Assembly (NCBI GenBank): GCA_005223125.1
Contig: NJBH01000006.1
Location: forward strand, 64,001 to 128,000
Length of the DNA stretch: 64,000 bases
Origin: Promethearchaeota archaeon Loki_b32
Lineage (GTDB): Archaea > Asgardarchaeota > Lokiarchaeia > Sigyniarchaeales > SOKP01
Reading direction: 5' to 3'
The position numbers were made by a program, and so were the translations under genes. The notes beneath the pieces are model-generated. The model ran no database searches and was not told the origin of the DNA. It saw only the letters and a program-made list of their open reading frames with translations. Positions 1,390 through 38,356 of the stretch are shown here, piece after piece (the first letter of the stretch is position 1; the number at the start of each line of letters is the position of its first letter).

Positions 1390-3039
1390 TTATTTAGAGA
1401 TTTTAATTTCTGGAATTTCTACGATGAAATTACTTCCTTTAGTATAATCATTTTCTAAACGATTTTCAACCCAAATTTTACCATGATAACTTTCAATAAT
1501 CTTTTTCACAAGTGATAAGCCAATCCCCATTCCTCTTATATTATTATCTTTATTGTGTCCCTTTTGAAAAATGGATTTCTTTTTTTTGTCAATAATACCA
1601 AAACCATTATCTTTGAATTCCATTTTAACATAATTTTTCTTATCAAGAAGGGCTTTAGTAATATCAACTTGGATTTTAACAGACTCATTTTGGTTATATT
1701 TTATTGCATTATGTAAGATATTTTCAAACACATCTAATAGAAATTCATTAGCATCGACGTATAATTCATTATTAACTTTTTTGATTTGGATATCTAATTT
1801 CTTTTCTTGAGCACTTTTATTCGCAAATTGTATTGCTTCATCTAAAATCCCATTAATCTCAACTGGTTTTAATGAAATTTCTGATTCTTCAAGTTTAGAA
1901 AGTTTGCGTACATTATTAATTAATTTGACCCCTCTATCAATTTGATTATCAATTATTTGAAAAAATTCGTCTAAATTATCAAAACTTTCTGATTTTTCTT
2001 TCAATATTGAGATTAATTCTGCTGAGGATTTAATATTATGAAAAATATTGTTTATATCATGCGTAAAAATATCTTTAAAGAATTCTGCTCTCTCATATGC
2101 CTCTCGATATCTATTTTCAGATTTTCTTAATTCTTGTTCAGCATGTTGATGTTCAGTAATATCTTTAAAGCTCCACACACGTCCTACTCTCTCTTCATCT
2201 TGGATTAATGGACAAGAATATTGTTCGAATATTCTTCCATCCTTAAAAAAAATCATATCATAACCATCCTTGGATGATTTTTCAAGATTTCTAAGTTTTA
2301 ATAAGAATTTATCTGGATCATTAAGTTGATCCAAGATATAATTTAATAACTTAGTGAAATCTTTCTGATCAATGACTTCATCTGGAATACGCCACATATA
2401 AATGAACCTTTCATTTAAATGCGTAATAACATTATTTATATCAACAACAAGAATTCCATCTGCTGTCGCTTCGAATGTGGCTCTTAATAATTCTTGACTC
2501 TCCTTTAATGCTTTTTCAGCATTTAATAGTTCAATAGTATCACCTAAGCTTTGACCAAATATCCGCAAAATCACAAAATCCTTACCTTTCCATTGAATTT
2601 TCTCTTTAATTTTACTAAAACACACAAATCCAGTTATCGCTCTGCTAATATAGATGGGAAAAGCTAAAAAAGATTGGATACTTTGTATTTCCATAAATTT
2701 CTTTACTGATTGAGCTCCATTTGGTAAATTAGAAACATCTCGAATATTAATAAAACTAATTTTCTTAACTTGATTTATCCACCAGGAAATTATTCTAATA
2801 TCTACTTTTTGAAGATTTTTAAGTTGGGAATTAATCCCTTCTGAACACCATTCATGGGTATTTCCAAAAAATTTTTTGTTATCATCAAAAAGAAAAAGAG
2901 TAACTCGATCTGCTTTTGATACAATTCCCATGTCTTCAAAGGATGAATTAATCGCTTCATCAAGATTTACTCTACCTACAAATCGAGAAGAGATACTTGA
3001 AATTACTTTTTCAAAATTTAATCTACTTTCAAGCGACAC
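1390..3039 (-). CDS. GAF-PAS sensor histidine kinase
   Basis: GAF ('NTHEWC'), PAS ('TADGILVVD'), H-box 'FTHDINN', N-box 'ENILHNAIKY', G boxes 'DNGFGI'/'GMGIGL'. GTG start with GGAG SD. Confidence 0.92.
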   Translation of the reverse strand: MSLESRLNFEKVISSISSRFVGRVNLDEAINSSFEDMGIVSKADRVTLFLFDDNKKFFGNTHEWCSEGINSQLKNLQKVDIRIISWWINQVKKISFINIRDVSNLPNGAQSVKKFMEIQSIQSFLAFPIYISRAITGFVCFSKIKEKIQWKGKDFVILRIFGQSLGDTIELLNAEKALKESQELLRATFEATADGILVVDINNVITHLNERFIYMWRIPDEVIDQKDFTKLLNYILDQLNDPDKFLLKLRNLEKSSKDGYDMIFFKDGRIFEQYSCPLIQDEERVGRVWSFKDITEHQHAEQELRKSENRYREAYERAEFFKDIFTHDINNIFHNIKSSAELISILKEKSESFDNLDEFFQIIDNQIDRGVKLINNVRKLSKLEESEISLKPVEINGILDEAIQFANKSAQEKKLDIQIKKVNNELYVDANEFLLDVFENILHNAIKYNQNESVKIQVDITKALLDKKNYVKMEFKDNGFGIIDKKKKSIFQKGHNKDNNIRGMGIGLSLVKKIIESYHGKIWVENRLENDYTKGSNFIVEIPEIKISK

Positions 3040-26275: not shown

Positions 26276-27421
26276 TTAAAACCCAACAATGTTTGTATTT
26301 CCAAAATCAATATCTGAATCTACAGCAGTTCGCACGTATGGAGATACAGGTCCATTTGCTAGAACCATTATCTTTATTTTGGAACCCATATCAGGTTTAT
26401 TTTGAACTCCAAATTTTAGTTGAGCATCTTCTGGAATCCCATTTGAAATAGTAGAAATTACTTTATCAACTTTTGATAATGTTAATGTATGATCACCGGT
26501 GACCGAAACCAAACATCTATTCACTTGACTTGGATCTGGCTTCAATAAAGGATTATTTAAGGCTAATTTTGCCTTTTCAATTAAATCTGACTCATCTCCT
26601 AAACATTCCGCTATACCAATTAAACCAGAAGGATATTTACCAGTTGGATTTTCCAGTAGAGTCTTTTTCACATCTGCAAAATCTATATTGACTAAACCAC
26701 AATTATTAATCAAATTTACAACTTCACCTATATTTCTTATTAGAATTTCATCCATAATTTTAAATCCTGTTATCATAGGGATTTTTCCAACAATTCCGAG
26801 CAGATTATCATTTGGAATTGGAATTAGAAAATCAGAGTATTTAGCAAGGTTTTTTAACCCTAAACTTGCTCTAGCAGATCTTTGTTTACCTTCAGATTTA
26901 AACGGAAGTGAGCAAAAAGTTGCAACAATGGCATTATTCTTTTTTGCTTCTTCTGCAATAATGGGAGCTGCTCCAGTACCTGTACCCCCGCCTAAACCAC
27001 ATGTTAAAAAGATAATATCTCCATTTAACGTTTGATTTAGCCTTTCACGGTCTTCTTCAGCAGCTTCTGCACCGACATGGGGGTCATTTCCTGAACCTAA
27101 CCCATTACAAAGCTCTTTTCCAATTAAGATTTTATGTTTTGAATTTGAGTAATACAAATCATGGGCATCAGTATTTATTGTAATTGTTTCAGCATGATTG
27201 AGGCCCATATCCTCTAATCGTGAAACAGTGTTATTTCCTGCTCCTCCGACACCAACCACATATGTCTTAATTTTTAATACTTTCAATAAGTCAGCCAAAT
27301 ACTTATCATCGTCGCAATTTGGATTTGAATTGGGATTTTGGTTATGTTGAGCTATTTCATTAAACCTCTCTCTTACCGATGATCGCTTTTTGGCTAAATC
27401 TAAAATATCGTCAACACTCAT
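26276..27421 (-). CDS. ftsZ: Cell division protein FtsZ
   Basis: GVGGAGNN, INTD, GLGGGTGTG, PF..EG..R, T7 loop NIDFADV. Confidence 0.95.
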   Translation of the reverse strand: MSVDDILDLAKKRSSVRERFNEIAQHNQNPNSNPNCDDDKYLADLLKVLKIKTYVVGVGGAGNNTVSRLEDMGLNHAETITINTDAHDLYYSNSKHKILIGKELCNGLGSGNDPHVGAEAAEEDRERLNQTLNGDIIFLTCGLGGGTGTGAAPIIAEEAKKNNAIVATFCSLPFKSEGKQRSARASLGLKNLAKYSDFLIPIPNDNLLGIVGKIPMITGFKIMDEILIRNIGEVVNLINNCGLVNIDFADVKKTLLENPTGKYPSGLIGIAECLGDESDLIEKAKLALNNPLLKPDPSQVNRCLVSVTGDHTLTLSKVDKVISTISNGIPEDAQLKFGVQNKPDMGSKIKIMVLANGPVSPYVRTAVDSDIDFGNTNIVGF

Positions 27422-27665
27422 GATATATCATCTAAAAAATTAGGTTATTATAATACGACAACGATATCAGTATAATATAACTAAATAATATGAAGATAAT
27501 ATTGGCGAAATATTCAACATAACCAAATGTTTTTGTAATAAGTGTAAGTCGTTAATTTTATTATTATATCAATTTTTTCGTTTGAAATAAAGGACAAATC
27601 ATTGCAGAATAAAATTTATAAGTCTAAATTATCATGATTATCATGGCTTAAGGGTATAACAAAAT

Positions 27666-27905
27666 ATGGAAATTGATAATACAAAAACTAGCAGTAATGA
27701 GTCATTGGATGGCTCAAAACATGATGATTTAATTAAAGTTAGGGCTACAATTTCTTGTCCGAATGGCGATTACAAGAAGATATTTAGAAATCAATTTCTA
27801 AGAAAAGAAATAGAAATGATGATTGTTACCTTCAAAGTGTTTGATTGGTTAACATGCAATAAATGTGGGGAACTCTTAAAGTTAGATTTGGAGTTTTCTA
27901 TTTAA
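27666..27905 (+). CDS. Small putative Zn-ribbon protein
   Basis: CPNG...CNKCG; 79 aa; divergent from ftsZ. Confidence 0.65.
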   Translation: MEIDNTKTSSNESLDGSKHDDLIKVRATISCPNGDYKKIFRNQFLRKEIEMMIVTFKVFDWLTCNKCGELLKLDLEFSI

Positions 27906-27985
27906 GATGTTAAAAATTCTATATAACACATTTACCTTTACTTATTTTTGGTTATAAGAATAACTGTTAAGAATTTGATTTTTCC

Positions 27986-29296
27986 TTATATTTTAAGATT
28001 AATTTGACCATACGTACCACCACCTCCAGGAGTATATTCAATTTCATTGTTTCTAAAAGCTCGTATAACTGAGGCAATAGTTGGATCAAATTTTTCAATT
28101 TTACTAATTGGGAGATTGATTAAAATTTCAAATTCAGGTCCAAGTTCGCTTATTATTTTGTTATATTCATTTAAAACCGTTTTACTTGTTGAGCTTTTAA
28201 TATTTTTGATGGAACGGATAATATCAATTAATGGAACGGCGTTTATATAATTAGGTCTATGATCTGGATGAATAGGATTTTCCGATGTAGAAATAACATC
28301 TATTCTTTCACTTACACCTAACTTTACTTTAAAATTTTTACCAAATTCTTCCTTACATGCAGGACATACTATTTTATTATCTGCTACTTGCTTTATATAT
28401 TGATTTTTAGCTGTTTGAGGATTACTCGAAAATATCGCAATGAAATTTTCAGTAATCGAATATTGGTTAAATACATTTTGGATGGTTTTTTTTGCTTTCT
28501 TAAAAATAATTCTCCTTCGGCACTTATTACAAAACATTTTGTAGTATTTTCCAAGTTTAGGATGTAAGCCTACATTTAATGATATTTTTCTCCCATCTTT
28601 TCGTTTAAGCGCTAATAAGATTTCTTCAAAAGAGGGATTATCAATATCAAATCTATTAAATTCCCTGCCTAGAGAACGTGGGTTTTGAGAATGTGCATCA
28701 CTATTACTTAAAAAAGTTACATCTTTTAGACATTTCAATCTGTCTGCGAGATGAGTATTGGCAGATAATCCTAATTCTATAAAGAATATATTTTTTGTAG
28801 CATCCTGGTAGCAATCTTTAAGAGTTTTAAACTTATTCTGTCGGAATATTGCTTTAAAGGGTGTAAAAGCATGAGCGGGTCCAATTATAGCACCCTCATC
28901 GGAGATAATATCAACTAATTCTGGTGGAGATAAATTAACCCTAGGACGCCCACCCCATTCACCTAAAATATTGGTTGAGTAGGGTACTAATTTCTTTTGA
29001 ATATTTTTTACCATATCAAAATCTTCAAAAAAAACAACTTCATGTACACTTTCTTGATCTTCAATTTCAGTTTGAAGAATAAAATAAATATCCTTATAAC
29101 AATACGCTCCATCTTTATCTTTTTCTAATTTGTTCTCTAAGTATTTCAACCAATCTGGTTGCAATACATCTCCTGTACCTAAAATGTTTAAACCTTTTTT
29201 TTTACAGGTTTCTAACATCGTGTCCAAATTCAACGTTTTTGATACTGCAATTGAATGAGGGGAGTGTATATGTAGGTCGGCATTGAAGATATTCAT
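27986..29296 (-). CDS. Endonuclease Q-like PHP-domain protein
   Basis: 'DLHIHS', 'GTGD', 'PAHAFTP', 'ELGLS', 'NSDAHS', 'GREFN', two CxxC, 'PGGGG.YG'. Confidence 0.88.
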   Translation of the reverse strand: MNIFNADLHIHSPHSIAVSKTLNLDTMLETCKKKGLNILGTGDVLQPDWLKYLENKLEKDKDGAYCYKDIYFILQTEIEDQESVHEVVFFEDFDMVKNIQKKLVPYSTNILGEWGGRPRVNLSPPELVDIISDEGAIIGPAHAFTPFKAIFRQNKFKTLKDCYQDATKNIFFIELGLSANTHLADRLKCLKDVTFLSNSDAHSQNPRSLGREFNRFDIDNPSFEEILLALKRKDGRKISLNVGLHPKLGKYYKMFCNKCRRRIIFKKAKKTIQNVFNQYSITENFIAIFSSNPQTAKNQYIKQVADNKIVCPACKEEFGKNFKVKLGVSERIDVISTSENPIHPDHRPNYINAVPLIDIIRSIKNIKSSTSKTVLNEYNKIISELGPEFEILINLPISKIEKFDPTIASVIRAFRNNEIEYTPGGGGTYGQINLKI

Positions 29297-29368
29297 TTTT
29301 TTCGAAATTAAATAGTAATTTTATACATTACATTAATTTCAATTTAATTAAGATTCTTTTATTTTTCC

Positions 29369-30415
29369 CTAAATAATGATCAATTTATCTTGAATTGGAT
29401 CATTTAGTAAAATCCTATAATATTCCATATCATCTTTAAACCTTGCTTTTTCTAATTTACCTTCAACTATTACCTTTTCACTTTTTTTTACATGCTCACA
29501 AAAACGACCTCTAAATGAATTAATTTCATTTATGTCTCTCATATCTATATCTTTTGCATTAAAATTGCTTTTAAGAATTTTTATGGGATTTATTTTATAT
29601 GAACAAGGAGTAAAAATTGAATCTTTTGAATCTAAAATATCGGCTTTGAGTCTAATTCTTCCAATATTTTTATATTGATAATCATAAAAATTGCCATTCC
29701 AATCTTTAGGACTTTTAATATATCTTATAAAAAAATCATGGTTCATATGCTTGCCTTGATGTAACTTGCGTTGTTCACTCCTAAGAAAATCATTAAAAGG
29801 AATATCAGATCCACCAACTCTCCACTCATAATGAGATTTATACTCATCTAGGTTATACTTCCGACAGTCATTTAATTCATTAAATATTTTTACTAATTTC
29901 TCTTGAAATTTTAAACTTGTTTCTGTACCGTATATTATTATATCAATATCAGATTTTTCAGTATTTAATCCTACCATTGTTGATCCTGTTATACCTATTG
30001 ATTTTTCAGGAAGATTGCCTTCAGTTATAAATAAATTACATAAATTTTTAGAACATGTTTCTATGTATGATAAATTATCTTTATCTAATAGGGTCTTAAA
30101 GAAACTTCGTGGAGTATAAATTTTTTTAATTTCTTGTATTTTGACTCCTTGGACTTCTAAGTCAATTTCTTTAGAATAAAAAAGGTAATCGGGATAATTC
30201 TCTCTCAAAAAGGAATATCGTTCATATAATTTATAGACTTTTTTAAAATGGATGCCTTTTTTTATCCTTTCTCCATCTGGATGGGGATAAAATCGTAAAA
30301 AGCAGATGATATAATCATTTGGATGTAGTAACCCTTTTACATCAAAAAACAAATTATCATTTTTTGTTTCTATATAATCTCCTTCAATTCCTTCAATATT
30401 TTTCATGAATTTCAC
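29369..30415 (-). CDS. Predicted archaeal Pol-beta-superfamily nucleotidyltransferase
   Basis: 'GITGS...G....SDIDIIIYG', 'VKGLLHP', C-terminal OB-like 'VEGKLE'. Confidence 0.8.
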   Translation of the reverse strand: MKFMKNIEGIEGDYIETKNDNLFFDVKGLLHPNDYIICFLRFYPHPDGERIKKGIHFKKVYKLYERYSFLRENYPDYLFYSKEIDLEVQGVKIQEIKKIYTPRSFFKTLLDKDNLSYIETCSKNLCNLFITEGNLPEKSIGITGSTMVGLNTEKSDIDIIIYGTETSLKFQEKLVKIFNELNDCRKYNLDEYKSHYEWRVGGSDIPFNDFLRSEQRKLHQGKHMNHDFFIRYIKSPKDWNGNFYDYQYKNIGRIRLKADILDSKDSIFTPCSYKINPIKILKSNFNAKDIDMRDINEINSFRGRFCEHVKKSEKVIVEGKLEKARFKDDMEYYRILLNDPIQDKLIII

Positions 30416-30426
30416 AATATTAGTAA

Positions 30427-31563
30427 TTAATACTTTGAAGGCGTCTTAGTTTTAATTTTTGAGGGAGTCTTCGATTTAATTTTTCTTAAATCTCTTTCAA
30501 ATTGTCTTTTTTCATTTAGAAATCGTTGCTTATCTTTTTCTAATTTATTTCTTTCACGTTTAATAATATTTTTTTCGCTTTCTAAGTTTGATTTTCGTTT
30601 TTCTAATTGTCTATATTCATTATTTAATCGTTTAAACTTTTCCTCTAAATTGGGAATTTTCCGGTTTAAGGACTGATACTTATTTTCTGCAGCTGGAACT
30701 TTTCTTTGTAATTCTTTTAATCTTGCCTCTTGTTGGCGTCTTCTTTTCTCCAACTCATTTGCATTTCTATCAGCTTTTTCTCTGGTCTTTTTTAGATCAA
30801 CTTTTTTCTTGTTAATCTCACGAGCTTTTAGATCTAAGTCTTGTTTTTTATATCGAGTTTTTTCTCTTTCTTCTTTTAATTTTTTCTTTTCATCAGAAAT
30901 ACGATTTTTTTCATCAATAATCTCTCTCCTTAAGCTATTGATTTCCCTATTTAAACGATCTCTTTCTTTATTTAGATCTTTAATTTCATTTCTTAAATCC
31001 ATTAATTTATCTTCCAAATCATTAGTAGTTCTGTTCAAGGCATTTTCTCTTCTTTCCATACCAGGAAGTTTCGTTTTAATTTCCTTTAAGCGATCTTCTG
31101 TTCTTGCCTTTTCTTTCTCTAAATATTTTTTTTCATTTCCAATTTCTTCTCTAAGTTTATCTAATTTATCTTGAAATCTTTCCAATTCAGCATTTTTTTG
31201 ATCTAATTCATCATTCTTTCTTCTGATTTTATCTTTAAATTGCCGTTCTTTTACATTTAACTCGTTTTTTTGTTGTTCTATTTCATTTTTCGCCACTTTT
31301 AATTCATTTCGCAGATTATCTCGTTGTTCAAGAAGATTTTTAACTTCAAATTCTCTATCCTTTCTTTTTCTTTCAAGATCCTCAATATTATACTTATAAG
31401 CCTCAATTTGATTAATTATTTTTTCCCATTCACTCTTCTCTTTATCCAGTTTGATTCTTTCTTTTTTTATTTTCTTAAGTAATTTTTTTTCTGGAATTGT
31501 TTCAAGTTCTTCCTCAGGTGTTTTTTCCCGAATTTCATATTTAGGAATTGGTTTGTCATCCAT
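30427..31563 (-). CDS. Long coiled-coil protein with an internal ~123-aa repeat and a KTPSK tail
   Basis: About 330 aa of K/E/R/L heptads; C-terminus KSKTPSKIKTKTPSKY. Confidence 0.8.
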   Translation of the reverse strand: MDDKPIPKYEIREKTPEEELETIPEKKLLKKIKKERIKLDKEKSEWEKIINQIEAYKYNIEDLERKRKDREFEVKNLLEQRDNLRNELKVAKNEIEQQKNELNVKERQFKDKIRRKNDELDQKNAELERFQDKLDKLREEIGNEKKYLEKEKARTEDRLKEIKTKLPGMERRENALNRTTNDLEDKLMDLRNEIKDLNKERDRLNREINSLRREIIDEKNRISDEKKKLKEEREKTRYKKQDLDLKAREINKKKVDLKKTREKADRNANELEKRRRQQEARLKELQRKVPAAENKYQSLNRKIPNLEEKFKRLNNEYRQLEKRKSNLESEKNIIKRERNKLEKDKQRFLNEKRQFERDLRKIKSKTPSKIKTKTPSKY

Positions 31564-31769
31564 GTTATTTCTACAATTCACTTTATTTTTTAATTAAATT
31601 ATATAATTATTGACTCTAAAGTGTTTGCATTCAAATTGCAATATTTAACTTTTTCTAACTGTTAAATCCATTTATATATTATAGTTTCTATTATTTTCAT
31701 ACTTAAAGTACTTAAAACTATAAAAATTCTCTATATTATAAATAAACCTATAATAACAGTGGTTATATT

Positions 31770-32192
31770 ATGAGTTTTGATGAAGAGGAAGAGTTTGACG
31801 AGGAATTCGACGAAGAAGATCTCGATGAAGAGTTAGATGAGCAGGATGAAGAAGAATTTGAGGATGAATTAGAAGAACCTTCTATAGTAGCATCTACTGA
31901 AGAGCCTGAATCTAAAACTCCAGCAACTAAAGTAATAGCTGAAGGGAAAAAAATTTCAGTCTATTTTATGTCAACTATAGGTCCCGGTGAAAAAAAACAA
32001 AAACTAGTTATAAATACAGGATATAGTGTTGGAGATATTAAGGAAACAGTAGCAAATTTATTTGGATTAGATCCTGCTGATTTTCATTTATCATCAAGTG
32101 GAATTACAATGGATGAGAGCTCATCTTTAAGAGATTATAATATAAGTGATGGAGACGATATACTTCTAATTCCCGCTAGTACAGCGGGCTAA
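31770..32192 (+). CDS. Ubiquitin-like modifier 1 (long acidic N-tail, ends -PASTAG)
   Basis: Beta-grasp pattern 'SVGDIKE.V', 'L...G..MD....L.DYNI.DGD.I.L'; terminal Gly. Confidence 0.88.
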   Translation: MSFDEEEEFDEEFDEEDLDEELDEQDEEEFEDELEEPSIVASTEEPESKTPATKVIAEGKKISVYFMSTIGPGEKKQKLVINTGYSVGDIKETVANLFGLDPADFHLSSSGITMDESSSLRDYNISDGDDILLIPASTAG

Positions 32193-32242: not shown

Positions 32243-33031
32243 TTATTTTTTTTTTAAGGGAATCAGCGCAATTTCATCATCATCATCAATTTTATAATCT
32301 TTAATTTGTGAGTTTTCATTTAATAATATCCCCCCAGAAGAGAGAAGAAAGTCTTCTAAATTATAATCAAATAATCTCCCAATTCTCTCTTTAATTGGCT
32401 TTATTATCTCAGTTGTATCGAGTATAATTATCTTTGTTTTCTCGCCTGGTTCAAGTAAAGATCTTACATAAACACGGATCCGGTCTTCCATTTCAATCAG
32501 TTTCATAGGTTGTGTATAAAATACCTCCTCATCAGTGTTATCTCTGGTCTTCAACATATTTTCGATTAACGTTTTTCTCTCATTTTCATCGAAATATAAC
32601 ATTTCCCGGATAAACAAGATTTTGTCCACTTTTGATAAATCTAATAGGTTTATTTTATCTAATTCTTCTTGACTAAAAACTGAAAAGATATATTTATCGA
32701 TTATTGGTATATCCTTATAGGACTCGCTGGATTCAGTATAATCTTCTATTAAAGGTATGGCATCAATGTAATCTTCAATGATATCAACTTGTTTCCGTTT
32801 AATTAATTTTGAATCAGGTAAGATTTTTTTTTTCTTTATTTTTTCATCCCAACTACCTTTAGACTGTATAACTGTATATACTGTACTAGTAGATAAGATC
32901 GCAACGCTACCTACTGTTAGAATGAGAAATAAGAAGGAATTTTCTATACTGAATAAGAAAAATAGGAAATAGACCAAAATACAAACAGTATAAAGAGCGA
33001 TGACACTTAAAATTCTATATTTATTTCTCAT
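32243..33031 (-). CDS. 2-TM membrane protein with a C-terminal Ubl domain lacking the terminal Gly
   Basis: Two N-terminal TM helices. The C-terminal 'PGEK...IKE.I..LF....DF.LSSGGI..NE....DY.I.D.D.I.LIP' is paralogous to the flanking Ubls; ends LKKK. Confidence 0.85.
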   Translation of the reverse strand: MRNKYRILSVIALYTVCILVYFLFFLFSIENSFLFLILTVGSVAILSTSTVYTVIQSKGSWDEKIKKKKILPDSKLIKRKQVDIIEDYIDAIPLIEDYTESSESYKDIPIIDKYIFSVFSQEELDKINLLDLSKVDKILFIREMLYFDENERKTLIENMLKTRDNTDEEVFYTQPMKLIEMEDRIRVYVRSLLEPGEKTKIIILDTTEIIKPIKERIGRLFDYNLEDFLLSSGGILLNENSQIKDYKIDDDDEIALIPLKKK

Positions 33032-33110
33032 AACTTTTTAATTAGATTATTTTCTGAATTTAAAATATATATTTTTTCTTATAAAGATCTATGGAATAAT
33101 TTTGGAGTTT

Positions 33111-33788
33111 TTAATGTGACACACCCTGAATTGATTTTCTAACTTTAGAATAGTTTTTTGTATCTAATTGGAATACAATACGATTTTTAATTTTTTCAAT
33201 TTTTATTAATTTCAAATCTGTTAAAATGTCTATGTATTTTTTGATGGTACTATGATTCTTTTTCAAGCTGTTTGCAATTTCTGTAATTTTTAATGTTTTA
33301 TTTTCTTTTTTCATAAAGTTAATTATTTTTTGGACAATTTTCTTTTTTAAATAATAATACAACTCGTCAAGTTCTGGATTTGAATCAAATTTAAAGAAGA
33401 TTCTATGATTGTTAATTTGTTTTGATCTTACAAATAGGAATTTTTCTAAACATGATAAATGCCATAAAGCTTGATTACTTCCCATATTTAGAGCTCTCAT
33501 TATCTCATTAATATTAGAAGGATTCTTTTTTATATAGTTATAAATCTCATTTCGTTTTGGATGTTCAATAATATTATTTTTCATTAATCTTGTTCCTGGG
33601 ATAATAACACGTTTTTTTATTAAATCTTTTAAAATTAATTCAATTCTATTCTCATTTATATTTGGATTATATCTAACTCTATTATTTATATACGATATGA
33701 TTTCTTTGATTGAAAAGAACGTTTTTTTTGTTAAATACTCTTTTACTAATTCAAGAACGACAGATTTTGCATTATCCAGAGAACTCAT
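33111..33788 (-). CDS. Multi-winged-helix transcriptional regulator
   Basis: 'KRNEIYNYIKKNP..INEI.R.L......WHL..L' and a second HTH 'ITEIANSL.....IKKYI..L'. Confidence 0.82.
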   Translation of the reverse strand: MSSLDNAKSVVLELVKEYLTKKTFFSIKEIISYINNRVRYNPNINENRIELILKDLIKKRVIIPGTRLMKNNIIEHPKRNEIYNYIKKNPSNINEIMRALNMGSNQALWHLSCLEKFLFVRSKQINNHRIFFKFDSNPELDELYYYLKKKIVQKIINFMKKENKTLKITEIANSLKKNHSTIKKYIDILTDLKLIKIEKIKNRIVFQLDTKNYSKVRKSIQGVSH

Positions 33789-34055
33789 GAGCCTATACTT
33801 GTATTATGTTGATTTTTCTTGTTAAGTAATTATATATTCTCTCTAAAACAACATTTTTTGATTAATATATATTAATAGGCATTCATACAATTTATAATAT
33901 AATTTCTAAAGAATCCTAATTTGCTCCTTCTCTTATTTTTGATAAAACCATTAAAAACTTCAAAATCATTCCAAAGGGTTTTATTATATCTTTTTAATGC
34001 GATTTTATTAAGTTTACAAAAATAAAAAAATAAAAAAAAAAAGGATGTGTAATAA

Positions 34056-34391
34056 ATGAGTTTTGAAAATGAATTTGATGAGGATTTAGTTGGGAAGGAG
34101 CCTGTAAAATCTAAAACTCCCGCATCTAAAACCCCTTCAACAGGAAAGAAATTGACTTTGTATTTCATGTCTACTATTGGACCCGGTGAAAAGAAGGAAA
34201 AATTAACAGTAAATAACAATAATCGTGTGAGTGATATTAAACAAACACTTGGAAATTTATTTGGACTTAATCCAAACGATTTTCATTTATCATCTGGAGG
34301 TATTACAATGGATGAAAATAGCTACTTAAACGATTATAGTGTAAGTGATGGCGATGATATTCTTTTGATCCCTGCGAGTACTGCGGGGTAA
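34056..34391 (+). CDS. Ubiquitin-like modifier 2 (ends -PASTAG)
   Basis: 59/81 identical to the Ubl1 core by manual alignment; first gene of the E1-E2-JAB-RING run. Confidence 0.9.
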   Translation: MSFENEFDEDLVGKEPVKSKTPASKTPSTGKKLTLYFMSTIGPGEKKEKLTVNNNNRVSDIKQTLGNLFGLNPNDFHLSSGGITMDENSYLNDYSVSDGDDILLIPASTAG

Positions 34392-34470: not shown

Positions 34471-35706
34471 TTGGTGATTATATTGGGAAAGAGTTCAGAT
34501 TTTTTTAGTAGAGGCCTGACATCGGAAGAGAGAAATTTATACGACCGCCAATTTAGGCTTGAGGGATGGTCTCAGAAACTAGTAAAAAACACTCGAGTTT
34601 TGATAGTTGGAGTTGGGGGATTAGGTTGCGAAATCGCAAAAAATCTGGCAATGTTAGGAATAGGACATTTAGATTTAGTAGATTTAGATATTATTGAACA
34701 TTCAAACTTAAATCGCCAAATTTTATTTACGGGTGCTAAATTGGGGGAACCTAAAGCAATCGTGGCGGCAAAAAAATTAACTGAAATAAATCCAAATATT
34801 AATGTAAATGGTTATCATACTTCCTTAGAGCGCCTAGATCCTGCAATATATAGAGCTGCTGACGTTATTATTGGAGGTCTTGACTCCATGAACGCTCGAT
34901 TGAATTTAAACGCTCAATGTGTAAGATTTAGGAAACCACTAGTAGATGGAGGTGTGTCAGGTTATCATGGTCATGTCTACACGATTTTTCCATTCAAAAA
35001 TGCATGTTATGAATGTAACCCGCTCCCTATAGCTGAAAGTGATGAGATGGCTGCATGTACTGTAGTAGGAATACCAAGAAAGAGGATTCACTGCATTTTT
35101 AAAGGAGATATGGCCTTTAAAGAAAAATTCGATAGGGATCCTAATCCAAAAAGTGTTGTTGATATTAAATTCATTCAAAAAGTTGCTAATGAATTAGTAA
35201 ATAAACATAATTTTCTCCCGGAATATACTCAAGATGATATTGTAAAGATTATCGATAGACATGATCCAGGAATAATTACCATAAATGCTGTCATTTCAGC
35301 ATTACAATCTCATGAAGCTATAAAAATCCTTCATTGGAAAAAAGGACATATAGGTTTAGGTGAACCAATAAAAACCTATGTTATTTTCAATGCAATGACA
35401 ATGATGTTTTATCATATTGAAAAAAAAAGAAATCCAGAATGTTCCCAATGTGGAAAAAAAGTTCGAAGATTTGTCGTGAAATTAAGAGCACGTTCTCCAT
35501 GTATTAATATAATCAAAGTATTAGAAAAACATGGTTTTAAGTTAGATCCTGATCTCGAACCCGTAATAACATTATTGGATTTTAATGATATTAAGATGAT
35601 TGATCTAGAACAGAATCCAATTGAAAATGGTTTAAGAAATTACGAATTTATGACTGCTGCAGGGTTTAAAGATGGAGAAATTTTTGTAACCTTAAAATTA
35701 AAATAA
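34471..35706 (+). CDS. Ubiquitin-like activating enzyme E1 (Uba2/Uba3-like)
   Basis: 'YDRQ', GVGGLG, 'DLDIIEHSNLNRQ', Zn pairs CYEC and CSQC, catalytic 'ACTVVGIPRKRIHCI'. Start may be TTG 34483. Confidence 0.93.
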   Translation: MVIILGKSSDFFSRGLTSEERNLYDRQFRLEGWSQKLVKNTRVLIVGVGGLGCEIAKNLAMLGIGHLDLVDLDIIEHSNLNRQILFTGAKLGEPKAIVAAKKLTEINPNINVNGYHTSLERLDPAIYRAADVIIGGLDSMNARLNLNAQCVRFRKPLVDGGVSGYHGHVYTIFPFKNACYECNPLPIAESDEMAACTVVGIPRKRIHCIFKGDMAFKEKFDRDPNPKSVVDIKFIQKVANELVNKHNFLPEYTQDDIVKIIDRHDPGIITINAVISALQSHEAIKILHWKKGHIGLGEPIKTYVIFNAMTMMFYHIEKKRNPECSQCGKKVRRFVVKLRARSPCINIIKVLEKHGFKLDPDLEPVITLLDFNDIKMIDLEQNPIENGLRNYEFMTAAGFKDGEIFVTLKLK

Positions 35707-35788
35707 AAAATTAATCTAAAAATGTTTTAAATAAAAAAGATTAATTGAAAAAAAATATTAATTATAATAAAAAAAAAGGGTTGAGAAT

Positions 35789-36316
35789 ATGAGTATAAGA
35801 AGTAGTAGAATCTCGCAAGATTTTGCGGGATTAAAAAAATTGTATAAACAAGGAACTATTATTCAGTTAAAACCATTTAATCCAAAAAGAAAGAGTATTG
35901 ATCATTTAGCAATTACTATTAAAGGACCTAAAGGTACTGTTTATGCAGGTGGTCTTTTTAAATTAGAAATGAAATTCCCTGCTCAGTATCCTAGACAACC
36001 ACCTTTTGTAAGACTGCATACTCCAATCTGGCATCCAAATTTTTGGGCAAAACCAAGTGAATATAAAGGACAAAGAAATATTTGTTTAGCATTAGTAGAT
36101 CCCTCCCTAACTGGTAAAAGAGGAGGGTGGAGTCCATCAAAAACAGCGGTTACCGTTGTTCAAGCAATAATTGCTATGTTAAACACACGAGGTAAATATG
36201 TAAATCCTACCGATGTTTTTAATAAAAAAGCTGCGATAGAGATGATGAAAAATCAGAAGTTTTTTGAGAAAAAAGTGAAGAATCTCGTGAAAAAGTATGC
36301 AAATAAAAAATGGTGA
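35789..36316 (+). CDS. Ubiquitin-conjugating enzyme E2
   Basis: 'GPKGTVYAGGLF', 'FP.QYP..PP', 'WHPNF...NICL', 'WSP'. Confidence 0.95.
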   Translation: MSIRSSRISQDFAGLKKLYKQGTIIQLKPFNPKRKSIDHLAITIKGPKGTVYAGGLFKLEMKFPAQYPRQPPFVRLHTPIWHPNFWAKPSEYKGQRNICLALVDPSLTGKRGGWSPSKTAVTVVQAIIAMLNTRGKYVNPTDVFNKKAAIEMMKNQKFFEKKVKNLVKKYANKKW

Positions 36317-36324
36317 TTACTTTA

Positions 36325-37137
36325 ATGGAGAATAAAGAATTAGCCAATAGTTCAATCAAAGACGTAATTAAAAAGAAGATAAAAGAAAAAATAAAACAAG
36401 AATTACTAGATGAAATATGTGAAGAACTTAAATTAGAGGAAGAAGAATTAACAGAAGAGATTTGTTCAATGCTTACTAAAAAAACCTCTGCCAAACCAAT
36501 AATAAAACTTTCTAAGATACCTACCGTCAAAATAGAAGAGAAAAAGCATGTTGAAATACAAATAGAAGAGGAAATACAAAAAGAAGTTTATATTTCAGTA
36601 AAAAGTATACTTAAAATAGCAAGTCATGCGCTTAAATATGCAAATTCTAAGATTCGAAGAGAGAATTGGGTGGAAGTTATTGGGCTTCTAGCAGGAAAAT
36701 TAGATAAAAACGAAATACTCCATATTGAAGATGCTTACCCAATGGGGCATGGAACGGCTGTATATGCCGAAATTAAAGATTATAAGAATTATGTGAGGGC
36801 ATTTAAAGATATTAAAAAACAGAGATTATTTATATGTGGATGGTATCATAGTCATCCTTCATATGGTCTTTTTATGAGTAATGAAGATATGGGCACTCAA
36901 GCAAGATATCAAACACTTTGGGATAAAGCAGTTGCTCTTGTTGTTGATCCATACCTAATTGACGGTACTTCACCAGGCTTTGAGATTTATAGCGCTAATT
37001 TGAAATCAAAAACATGGTATCCATTATTATACGGGATTAAAGGGTCATTAGATGTAAGAATGTTACCTGAAATATTGAAATTTATGCATCCCCTCATTGA
37101 AGGAAAGCCAGTATATCTTGAATATGATGAAGATTAA
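36325..37137 (+). CDS. JAB/MPN+ (JAMM) metallo-isopeptidase, Rpn11/CSN5-like
   Basis: 'EVIGLL.G', 'GWYHSHP.YG..MS..D', 'ALVVDP'. GGTGA SD overlaps the E2 stop (ORF is open from 36310). Confidence 0.93.
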   Translation: MENKELANSSIKDVIKKKIKEKIKQELLDEICEELKLEEEELTEEICSMLTKKTSAKPIIKLSKIPTVKIEEKKHVEIQIEEEIQKEVYISVKSILKIASHALKYANSKIRRENWVEVIGLLAGKLDKNEILHIEDAYPMGHGTAVYAEIKDYKNYVRAFKDIKKQRLFICGWYHSHPSYGLFMSNEDMGTQARYQTLWDKAVALVVDPYLIDGTSPGFEIYSANLKSKTWYPLLYGIKGSLDVRMLPEILKFMHPLIEGKPVYLEYDED

Positions 37138-37165
37138 AACAGAAGAATTTTGGTGATTTTAGACT

Positions 37166-38356
37166 ATGGCAAAATTTAAATCGGTAGTAATTTTTCTAGC
37201 GATATTTTGCTTAATTGGTATAATCCATGGTGCTCTTCTAAATTCAATTAATGTTTTTGTAACTTGGTTGTTAATTGGAATTTGGTTAATTTATTCTTTC
37301 AAAGTTCTAAAAAATATCAAACAATATCGTGAATTTAATTCTCCTCATAATACTGCTTTTTTTACCATTGGTCCTGTTTTAATGGGAATTTTTTATTCAG
37401 TGTGGAGTAATTTCACAGGTTTATTAGGAGAAAATCTTTTAGAAAGTACAGATTTATATTTAAGTTGGTGGAGTATACTATTTGGATTTCCCTATATATT
37501 ATATGGTTCGATTTCTTTATACCGTTGTTTTAAAAAGTATAATGTAATACATTTTAGAAGGAAATCAATAAAAGCACGCACATTTGGTTTTATTTTAGGA
37601 ATCTCCATTCTCCTGTTTATAATTATATACTGGATAAGTTTTTATTCAATTATAGACTTTTATGAATCTTTAATAACACCTCTCCATTTTTTAATAGATC
37701 TCAATCTATTAATATTACTTATCAGTACTATACTACTATTAATAGTCCCTGGCTTGTTTGGTGCTCAAACTCCATTACCTCAACTAACTAGAGATTACAT
37801 AGCAAGACGTACAAGCAGATTAAACAATTTAACATCACCCACCCCTAATCGACAAAGACAAACTGTTCGTACTACAACTAGATCATCTCCAACACCTTCA
37901 ACAAGAACAGTTGCTCGCACAACAAGATCAGTTTCTCGTTCTGCAAGATCAACGCCTACAACAAATAGATATTCTACAAGCTCTAGAGAAAAAAAAACTA
38001 CTCAAACTGTAGGCAGAAGAGCAACAGGACCAGTGCGAAGAAAAAAAACTGTTACAAAAATAAGCAATTTCAATTTATATAAACCAAAAGCAGCACGTCT
38101 TTCAACAGAGGATTTTAAATGTATTTTTTGTTTTAAGTTACCAGAATATCCTAAAGATAATGGTAGAGGAATAATATTGTGTCCAAAATGTAAATACCCC
38201 GCTCATGCTGACGAATTTAAAGATTGGCTTCAAAGTTCTAACCTATGTTCTCGGTGTAATACACCAATTCCCTCAAGCTTTAGAAGAAATCCTAAAACCA
38301 TAAGTGTAAAAAATTATATAATCGTCATTAAGCATTTTGTAAGTAATAGGAGATGA
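37166..38356 (+). CDS. Polytopic membrane protein with a C-terminal variant RING finger (putative E3 ligase)
   Basis: About 6 TM helices, an S/T/R-rich linker, then CIFC-x16-CPKC-x4-H-x2-E-x3-W-x6-CSRC. Confidence 0.8.
   Translation: MAKFKSVVIFLAIFCLIGIIHGALLNSINVFVTWLLIGIWLIYSFKVLKNIKQYREFNSPHNTAFFTIGPVLMGIFYSVWSNFTGLLGENLLESTDLYLSWWSILFGFPYILYGSISLYRCFKKYNVIHFRRKSIKARTFGFILGISILLFIIIYWISFYSIIDFYESLITPLHFLIDLNLLILLISTILLLIVPGLFGAQTPLPQLTRDYIARRTSRLNNLTSPTPNRQRQTVRTTTRSSPTPSTRTVARTTRSVSRSARSTPTTNRYSTSSREKKTTQTVGRRATGPVRRKKTVTKISNFNLYKPKAARLSTEDFKCIFCFKLPEYPKDNGRGIILCPKCKYPAHADEFKDWLQSSNLCSRCNTPIPSSFRRNPKTISVKNYIIVIKHFVSNRR

Follow-up and report, generated by a model that had tools for sequence, protein, structure and literature searches.

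We propose that a small membrane protein of Promethearchaeota archaeon Loki_b32, here called TM-Ubl for its transmembrane (TM) helices and its ubiquitin-like (Ubl) domain, is probably the membrane anti-factor, or tether, of a DNA-binding regulator encoded beside it. TM-Ubl is 262 amino acids (aa) long (P0001). Its gene, called as an open reading frame (ORF) with its translation, occupies 32243..33031 on the minus strand of the window, by which we mean the whole 64,000-nucleotide stretch of contig NJBH01000006.1 analysed here (contig positions 64,001 to 128,000). The regulator, a protein of 225 aa with two winged helix-turn-helix (wHTH) domains, is encoded directly upstream on the same strand (33111..33788). 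We strongly infer that a conserved helical segment of TM-Ubl, the tail domain, docks this regulator at the membrane. It is also possible, and we put this forward more tentatively, that an archaeal Ubl system is feedback-controlled by a membrane-tethered transcription factor whose tether senses the pathway through a non-activatable decoy Ubl.

TM-Ubl consists of a two-helix membrane hairpin, a Lys-rich linker, the conserved helical domain and a ubiquitin-fold domain, and this entire architecture recurs in more than 380 homologues of ~264 aa. The first TM helix (residues ~7-27; 32951..33013, minus strand) follows the basic N-terminus MRNKYR and is supported by hydropathy and charge counts, and by a helix at residues 2-26 in the AlphaFold2 (AF2) model. 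The second (residues ~33-54; 32870..32935, minus strand; GSVA..LS.S..YT) is supported by its conservation and by matches in sibling proteins, and a loop of five residues separates the two. Maxima of 2.63 and 2.07 in 19-residue Kyte-Doolittle windows, together with the charge counts, agree with the two TM helices of the initial annotation. Beyond them lies the linker (residues 55-84; 32780..32869, minus strand), which carries 6-10 Lys or Arg residues across the family and is modelled with a predicted local distance difference test (pLDDT) score below 50. Among 29 family members, Lys and Arg number 2-4 in the N-terminus, 0-1 in the loop between the helices and 6-10 in the 30 residues after the second helix, a positive-inside pattern that fits a hairpin whose two ends are both cytoplasmic.

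The tail domain and the Ubl domain are accordingly predicted to be cytoplasmic, from the charge pattern and from sibling proteins of type-I topology. The C-terminal part would stay in the cytoplasm even if the first helix were a cleaved signal peptide. An outward-facing Ubl, which would have told against the initial annotation, is thus not what the charge pattern predicts. Conservation, expressed as the frequency of the commonest residue over more than 120 family sequences, is highest in the second TM helix (0.87), followed by the C-terminal tail (0.82), the Ubl domain (0.81), the middle domain (0.78) and the linkers (0.60). The second helix is also common to the sibling surface proteins. Since some sibling matches begin at query residue 31-32 (P0167, P0171, P0183; G156:C20, G065:C42), this conserved helix belongs to the shared unit. 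Speculatively, its very high conservation would fit a specific contact between helices, or release through cleavage within the membrane.

The segment that links membrane and Ubl had been annotated as a helical spacer, a label that no longer describes it. Residues ~85-165 (32537..32779, minus strand) form a domain with a conservation of 0.78 against 0.60 in the true linkers, and it recurs in surface proteins. Exhaustive HMMER searching found residues ~74-165 alone at the extreme C-terminus of long proteins, whose ectodomains are of NosD/beta-helix, LamG, Ig-like or beta-propeller type. In these siblings the ectodomain is followed by a single TM helix and a Lys-rich stretch, and sometimes by a Cys/His-rich zinc module, before the tail domain. 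Thirty such segments align well (alignment A3), and the C-terminal half of the domain models as a small three-helix bundle. As would be expected of an anti-factor, the domain is placed in the cytoplasm by the charge pattern and by its position after the single TM helix of the type-I siblings.

We can put no name to the fold of the tail domain. It has no Pfam match, its best sequence-profile match in the PDB has E = 0.64, and Foldseek returned no PDB match at E <=0.001. When 48,161 chains were compared structurally with VIA-align, Z reached 5.9 at best, with generic three-helix bundles and designed proteins, and only 4.5 with the SigK/RskA complex (4nqw). Searching the ESM Atlas by shape and features returned only the domain's own Promethearchaeota clusters, or matches with TM-scores below 0.5. 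These missing matches do not prove that the fold is novel. In a sample of 251 genomes from the phylum, searched at E <=1e-6, the domain was present in 45 of the 54 genomes of the window's family and in none of 196 elsewhere.

The siblings also point to the partner of the tail domain. Across all 18 loci examined, the wHTH and TM-Ubl genes are adjacent on the same strand with a gap of 53-97 nt, and this coupling outlasts that of the wider gene cluster: the E1-E2-JAB genes lie on other contigs in two genomes (G207, G279) and 38 kb away in a third (G204), with wHTH and TM-Ubl still adjacent. Paralogues of the regulator (alignment A4) stand beside sibling tail-domain genes, aligning over their full length at 37-47% identity, and a homologous wHTH gene of 221-280 aa lies directly upstream of the tail-domain gene in all four metagenome contigs looked up. 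Of 57 tail-domain hits in five genomes, 49 are within 8 kb of a wHTH-family match on the same strand. By a rough estimate, chance would supply such a match in ~5% of cases, at ~25 wHTH genes per 4-Mb genome. Of these 49, 16 have the wHTH gene upstream, 26 have it directly downstream (37-217 nt), three are arranged otherwise and four are fused with it in one frame. Conserved coupling with a regulator gene, a further property of anti-factors, is therefore seen both in TM-Ubl itself (18/18) and in its siblings (49/57).

One of the fusions, read through from end to end, brings all the parts into one polypeptide. Its single frame of 1107 aa (L029 747-4070, minus strand) joins a NosD ectodomain, a TM helix, the tail domain and a double wHTH, with Pfam matches to HTH_24 (37.2 bits) and HTH_IclR (24.6 bits) that both exceed the cut-offs. 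Some genomes carry up to ~20 copies of the cassette of sensor, tail domain and wHTH. The sibling cassette closest to that of the window (L028; G270:C157:21500-29500; P0157, P0158, P0170) has a wHTH paralogue 45% identical to the window's regulator. Behind it come small TM-hairpin proteins in which a zinc module with eight Cys/His ligands (C-x2-H...C-x2-C...C-x2-C...C-x2-C) precedes the tail domain; in Pfam, this module has only weak B-box, RING and zinc-ribbon matches (E 0.001-0.2).

The regulator itself has Pfam matches above cut-off to HTH_5 and HrcA_DNA-bdg, and its profile matches in the PDB are archaeal wHTH DNA-binding proteins (5duk, Sso10a-2, Lrs14-like, ArsR). TM-Ubl has no DNA-binding domain in Pfam. 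[quoted passage not shown] This idea found no support: the protein has no EAP30 or Vps25 match in Pfam, and its profile matches are to DNA-binding wHTH proteins.

A structural model of the complex between the wHTH protein (alignment A4) and the tail domain (alignment A3), built from unpaired alignments, reached an ipSAE interface score of 0.81 (0.79-0.82 in three runs), whereas the highest-scoring of three controls stood at 0.00. When the score was calibrated, its mark was reached by 58 of 80 solved complexes and by two of 110 mismatched pairs. Both partners are modelled with a pLDDT of at least 81, and 96% or more of the contacts are common to the runs. From the tail domain, the contacts draw on I115-V118 in the KYIFSxFS motif, on the invariant F140, and on L155 and M159. 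The wHTH protein contributes F24-S26, V61-G65 and N105-S112, among them helix 3 of the first winged helix, which bears the invariant W109 and H110. In both partners, the tightest predicted contacts use residues conserved across the family. The model supports binding without demonstrating it.

A promoter element shared across the locus points to a possible target of the regulator. An operator-like sequence of 20 nt, ACTCCAAAATTATTCCATAG, lies at 33089..33108 on the minus strand, within the 79-nt gap between the wHTH stop codon and the TM-Ubl start codon, and is followed by a TATA-like box. The same element, ACTTCAAAATCATTCCAAAG, lies at 33957..33976 on the plus strand, ~80 nt upstream of the start of Ubl1, one of two Ubl modifiers encoded on either side of the wHTH and TM-Ubl genes. 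Within the 4.13-Mb genome, the exact 20-mer ACTTCAAAATCATTCCAAAG has two copies, the one at Ubl1 and another that precedes a solitary Ubl gene on contig C70. Allowing up to three mismatches adds just four sites genome-wide, one of which is the gap between wHTH and TM-Ubl (three mismatches). A degenerate pattern built on these two sites of the window, the Ubl1 copy and the gap, and hence circular for them, has no other match in the window, where 0.01 would be expected.

Every one of the 18 orthologous gaps retains the element, in many cases as ATTCCA-A-TGGAAT, and these loci also have it upstream of Ubl1, even the most distant ones, where the wHTH proteins are 52-60% identical. In the divergent region, it is absent from the wHTH gene's own side. 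With the element conserved in the gap and a TATA-like box after it, TM-Ubl seems to be under its own promoter and co-regulated with the operon that begins at Ubl1. The wHTH protein is the obvious candidate to bind the element. The solitary gene on C70 (G000:C70:2578-2916, minus strand; L003 1486-1824) is a fourth Ubl gene, encoding 112 aa that end in ASTAG, and has no adjacent E1 or E2; its copy of the exact element lies at 2982-3001 on the minus strand.

The Ubl domain of TM-Ubl (residues 183-258; 32258..32485, minus strand) is a clear relative of the flanking modifiers, with 39% and 41% identity to them and 26 invariant columns that include PGEK, DF.LSS.GI, DY and LIP. It matches the Pfam ubiquitin family (PF00240) with E = 1.1e-4 and 22.3 bits, below the gathering score of 25.4, and many members of the TM-Ubl family have a precomputed PF00240 match. 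AF2 models it with pLDDT values of ~80-87. With this model, Foldseek retrieves ubiquitin, SUMO1, NEDD8 and the Caldiarchaeum ubiquitin 6fno_D at E ~3e-6, with target TM-scores of ~0.8-0.9 and root-mean-square deviations of 1.3-2.8 A over ~79 columns. A profile of the three local Ubl domains aligns without gaps to residues 11-69 of ubiquitin chains, which equates LSSGG with ubiquitin 43-47 and IP with 70-71.

What differs is the end, at the positions equivalent to ubiquitin 72-76. Where both modifiers finish in ASTAG, TM-Ubl finishes in LIPLKKK and a stop codon (basic tail with stop, 32243..32257, minus strand), so the terminal Gly of conjugatable Ubls is missing. The initial annotation had described this replacement and the retention of PGEK, DFxLSSGGI, DY and LIP, and its description stands. 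Among 124 full-length members, the residues after IP resemble SRKEKN, and 122 of the 124 have no terminal Gly. TM-Ubl thereby resembles type-II UBLs, in which the UBL is embedded in a larger protein and is not processed to a free C-terminal Gly. A conjugatable form ending in Gly was considered and rejected, as it occurs sporadically, in only two of the 124 members and in differing contexts (SRKDRG, SRKNRG). Similarly, we rejected the possibility that TM-Ubl is a decaying copy of a modifier, because the Ubl and its basic tail are among the best-conserved parts across more than 120 sequences; indeed, the Ubl is as conserved as the tail domain. Its topology, its 39-41% identity to the modifiers, its LKKK end and this conservation together bear out a membrane-anchored, cytoplasm-facing and non-conjugatable paralogue of the modifiers. 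In the window, the last four codons and the stop codon (32243-32262) fall within the run CCCTTAAAAAAAAAATAA (A10). The LKKK tail differs from the SRKEKN of the family and may have been cut short by slippage in the homopolymer or by an indel in the assembly.

Full-length TM-Ubl was found only in four genera (g1, g4, g6 and g7) of one Lokiarchaeial family. Orthologues of the wHTH regulator (>53% identity) occur in the same four genera and are absent from g2, g3, g5 and g8. Orthologues of the operon's E2 are more widely distributed, occurring in g2, g5, g8, g9 and others, and are missing from g3. TM-Ubl was found only in genomes that also have the operon E2 orthologue, so the initial annotation's link to the operon is not undercut by homologues occurring independently of it. 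In genus g3 (G040, G129, G147, G180, G312, two of them 100% complete), there is no match to the operon-type E2, an Ala-Gly Ubl, TM-Ubl or the tail domain. The only E2 found in these genomes is a second paralogue (~41% identity), and it looks like the whole system has been lost in this genus.

These observations can be assembled into a provisional mechanism. The tail domain would bind the wHTH protein on its N-terminal half, with helix 3 of the first wHTH in the interface, and in this way hold the regulator at the membrane. The regulator's site of action would be the 20-nt element, which lies just upstream of TATA-like boxes both at the Ubl1-E1-E2-JAB-RING operon and at the gene for TM-Ubl. In that case, the wHTH/TM-Ubl pair would close a feedback loop around the Ubl system, with the tether feeding back on its own regulon. 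We speculate that the input to TM-Ubl is cytoplasmic, since the extracellular sensor of its siblings is replaced by an outer loop of only five residues. The Ubl might take the place of the siblings' ectodomain as the input module, as a stand-in for the free modifier. E1, E2, JAB, the RING protein, a Ubl reader or an unfoldase could bind it, or could modify the Lys-rich linker. Such binding or modification might release, degrade or lock the tether, and thereby change the level of free regulator. Three roles are conceivable for the Ubl: a decoy reporting how much pathway capacity is free, a handle for a reader or unfoldase, or, together with the linker, a target of the TM-RING ligase. Through such a decoy, the cell might sense either the free capacity of E1, E2, JAB and readers or RING-dependent modification and extraction.

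A plainer account extends the initial annotation's idea of a type-II UBL adaptor or decoy: the membrane-held Ubl would concentrate or inhibit E2, E1, JAB, the TM-RING protein or a receptor, much as MUB and UBL3 act on E2s and MARCH ligases and as Herp and Usa1 act in endoplasmic-reticulum-associated degradation, and the wHTH protein would be just a local regulator. A good deal fits this account. The Ubl keeps the surface residues that it shares with the modifiers and lacks their conjugatable end. TM-Ubl is encoded among the Ubl genes and was found solely where the operon E2 is present. The last gene of the operon encodes a membrane RING-like protein, and there are eukaryotic precedents in the binding of E2 by MUB (PMC4996978) and in UBL3 (PMC9001657). 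Yet this account leaves unexplained why the middle domain recurs in dozens of sensor-like surface proteins, which lack a Ubl and are paired with or fused to a wHTH, and it leaves the confident model of the wHTH/tail-domain complex unexplained as well. Further, where the cluster has broken up, TM-Ubl stays with the wHTH gene and not with E1-E2-JAB. As the whole story it therefore seems unlikely to us; it could supply the input step of the Ubl within the tether reading, and is a rival only when taken as the complete explanation.

Two other proposals also start from the Ubl end of the protein. TM-Ubl could be a membrane-fixed acceptor or primer, in which lysines of the linker or the Ubl (the K of PGEK, or IKE) are modified through the TM-RING protein and give rise to membrane-fixed chains or a mark for extraction. 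The linker does carry 6-10 Lys or Arg residues, conserved lysines are common to the Ubl and the modifiers, and the operon encodes the TM-RING-like protein. We nevertheless judge this improbable: the positive-inside rule alone predicts a basic linker, and the coupling to the wHTH gene goes unaccounted for. A still more doubtful proposal, to which we give very little credence, is that TM-Ubl mimics ubiquitylated cargo, its in-frame Ubl without Gly acting as a constitutive sorting signal for ESCRT-type readers that resists deubiquitinases. In eukaryotic experiments, in-frame non-cleavable ubiquitin fusions are sufficient for sorting. Asgard archaea do encode ubiquitin-binding components of ESCRT-I and ESCRT-II (PMC9192718). 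Against this, no ESCRT genes adjoin the wHTH/TM-Ubl pair in any locus seen, the modifier is of the Ala-Gly type and not the ESCRT-linked ubiquitin, and the wHTH coupling is again left unexplained.

Several points also weigh against the tether that we favour. The operon occurs without the wHTH/TM-Ubl pair in g2, g5 and g8. TM-Ubl is found only with the operon and the operon is also found without TM-Ubl, and thus the operon can dispense with it; the pair is a dispensable accessory layer. Because all genomes that carry the pair belong to one family, its conserved synteny is partly a matter of inheritance. TM-Ubl is the only tail-domain protein in its own genome (A3 hidden Markov model against all ORFs of at least 60 aa), and consequently the sibling evidence is drawn from other genomes. 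The predicted binding rests on gene linkage, fusions and one structure prediction from unpaired alignments. Some other factor might bind the shared element, or it might be a promoter feature typical of the lineage, and duplication of the Ubl1 promoter may account for its exact copy on C70. Finally, the link from the Ubl domain to release of the regulator is speculative.

By mechanism, the nearest known systems are the membrane anti-sigma factors paired with extracytoplasmic function (ECF) sigma factors and, for the fused siblings, the one-component transmembrane regulators. The likeness to pairs such as RseA-sigmaE, RsiW-sigmaW and RsgI-SigI lies in the two-gene cassette, in a cytoplasmic helical domain predicted to cover the regulator, in the variable ectodomains of the siblings and in an anti-factor gene that is apparently part of the regulon. 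The feedback proposed for the tether would parallel that of anti-sigma genes in ECF operons. TM-Ubl also resembles tethers released by intramembrane proteolysis, in that the membrane helix beside its binding domain is strongly conserved. Unlike the anti-sigma pairs, its partner is a double-wHTH protein, it carries a Ubl and no ectodomain, and its tail domain has no detectable relation in sequence or fold to anti-sigma domains. Archaea are not known to have sigma factors, and proteolytic release is hypothetical here. The fused siblings (such as L029, 1107 aa) resemble ToxR- and CadC-type regulators and ArnR/ArnR1 of Sulfolobus in joining a DNA-binding domain to a TM helix. These siblings carry their wHTH on the C-terminal side of the TM helix, with the tail domain as the connection, whereas for TM-Ubl the DNA-binding domains reside in a protein of their own. 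Asgard archaea are mentioned in neither of two surveys of transmembrane transcription regulators (PMC10269533, PMC6396743).

Among ubiquitin-fold proteins, the initial annotation had proposed an analogy to Herp, TMUB and MUB proteins, which suits the Ubl part and fails for the protein as a whole, where the tail domain and the wHTH coupling resemble a membrane anti-factor. Like Herp, Usa1 and TMUB1 of endoplasmic-reticulum-associated degradation, TM-Ubl combines TM segments with a type-II UBL in the cytosol, in the neighbourhood of a membrane RING ligase. Those proteins have their UBL N-terminal to the TM segments and scaffold Hrd1 complexes; TM-Ubl is related to them by its beta-grasp fold only and carries a regulator-docking domain. 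A membrane-held transcription factor whose availability is tied to the ubiquitin system is known from yeast Spt23/Mga2 and mammalian Nrf1, and the likeness here is one of concept. There the factor itself is anchored, ubiquitylated and processed, while the coupling in TM-Ubl is hypothetical and would depend on a Ubl built into a separate tether. With MUB (PMC4996978) and UBL3 (PMC9001657), TM-Ubl shares a non-conjugated ubiquitin fold on the cytoplasmic face of the membrane in a ubiquitin-type pathway. MUB and UBL3 are anchored by a prenylated CaaX box at the C-terminus (PMC4996978, PMC9001657), whereas the anchor of TM-Ubl is an N-terminal TM hairpin and its C-terminus is basic (LKKK or SRKEKN), without Cys or CaaX. 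Nor are MUBs known to have a regulator-binding domain.

The surrounding locus is that of a complete Ubl system, in a window with a G+C content of ~30% from a genome that is 95.5% complete. The window's proteins match those of Promethearchaeota and Lokiarchaeota metagenome-assembled genomes. The order Ubl2, TM-Ubl, wHTH and Ubl1-E1-E2-JAB-TM-RING, as the initial annotation had given it, is confirmed by the ORF list and Pfam. Ubl2 (31770..32192, plus strand), a modifier of 140 aa with an acidic N-terminal extension and an ASTAG end, is convergent with TM-Ubl. On the other side lies Ubl1 (34056..34391, plus strand; 111 aa, also ending in ASTAG), followed by the presumed regulated operon E1-E2-JAB-TM-RING (34471..38356, plus strand). 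This encodes E1 (34471-35706; Pfam ThiF, 1.4e-61), E2 (35789-36316; UQ_con, 3.6e-26), JAB (36310-37137; JAB, 1.5e-15) and a polytopic protein, called as an ORF, with a RING-like finger at its C-terminus (TM-RING; 37166-38356), all on the plus strand. In the closed Lokiarchaeial genome CP070831.1 (L005 6288-6560), the E1 beside Ubl1 is a ThiF fragment of 91 aa, followed by unrelated genes and an actin gene, with wHTH, TM-Ubl and Ubl2 intact; the operon there is broken or has moved. On the far side of Ubl2, a block of genes (26276-31581) whose order is kept in related genomes encodes a FtsZ/tubulin-like protein, a 79-aa protein, a 436-aa protein of the MJ0043_C family, a nucleotidyltransferase-like protein of 348 aa and a Lys/Glu-rich coiled-coil protein of 384 aa.

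The conjugatable Ubls of this group share a further motif. Approximately 13 residues ahead of the first strand, every conjugatable Ubl seen has the sequence [ST]K-T-P (as in ESKTPATK and KSKTPASKTPS), which may be a phosphorylation or docking motif. It was seen in the products of 31770-32192, 34056-34391 and 30427-31581, and in P0132, P0138, P0142, P0147, P0150, P0165 and P0166, and it is repeated at the C-terminal end of the adjacent 384-aa coiled-coil protein (30427-31581; KSKTPSKIKTKTPSKY). At the same position TM-Ubl has YTQP, and the consensus of its family is YTPP. Relatives of the Ala-Gly modifiers also occur as head-to-tail poly-Ubls of two or three units, each ending in STAG, and as C-terminal domains of zinc-ribbon proteins, a P-loop ATPase-like protein of 564 aa and a protein of 307 aa (P0132, P0141, P0138, P0142, P0150, P0164, P0165 and P0166 among these poly-Ubl and larger proteins). 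Some of the larger proteins have 2-6 extra residues after STAG. To judge from their sequences, the larger STAG-ending proteins would be conjugatable together with their N-terminal domains.

We know of no earlier case of a ubiquitin fold built into an anti-factor. Open-access papers and bioRxiv yielded no description of a membrane-anchored Ubl or of the wHTH cassette in Asgard archaea, and the finding appears to be unpublished. What had been taken for a spacer is recast as the key functional domain of the protein. It belongs to an undescribed signalling family within one Lokiarchaeial family, whose members combine a variable ectodomain, a conserved TM helix, a docking domain and a split or fused double wHTH. 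The locus itself represents a testable circuit of regulator, predicted tether, shared promoter element and Ubl-E1-E2-JAB-RING operon, and because its components are small and soluble apart from the hairpin, it could be examined in vitro without culturing the organism. If the proposal is correct, TM-Ubl would represent a prokaryotic forerunner of the ubiquitin-dependent release of membrane-bound transcription factors such as Spt23/Mga2 and Nrf1, built on a new regulator-docking domain that serves a whole lineage family of surface-sensor/wHTH cassettes.

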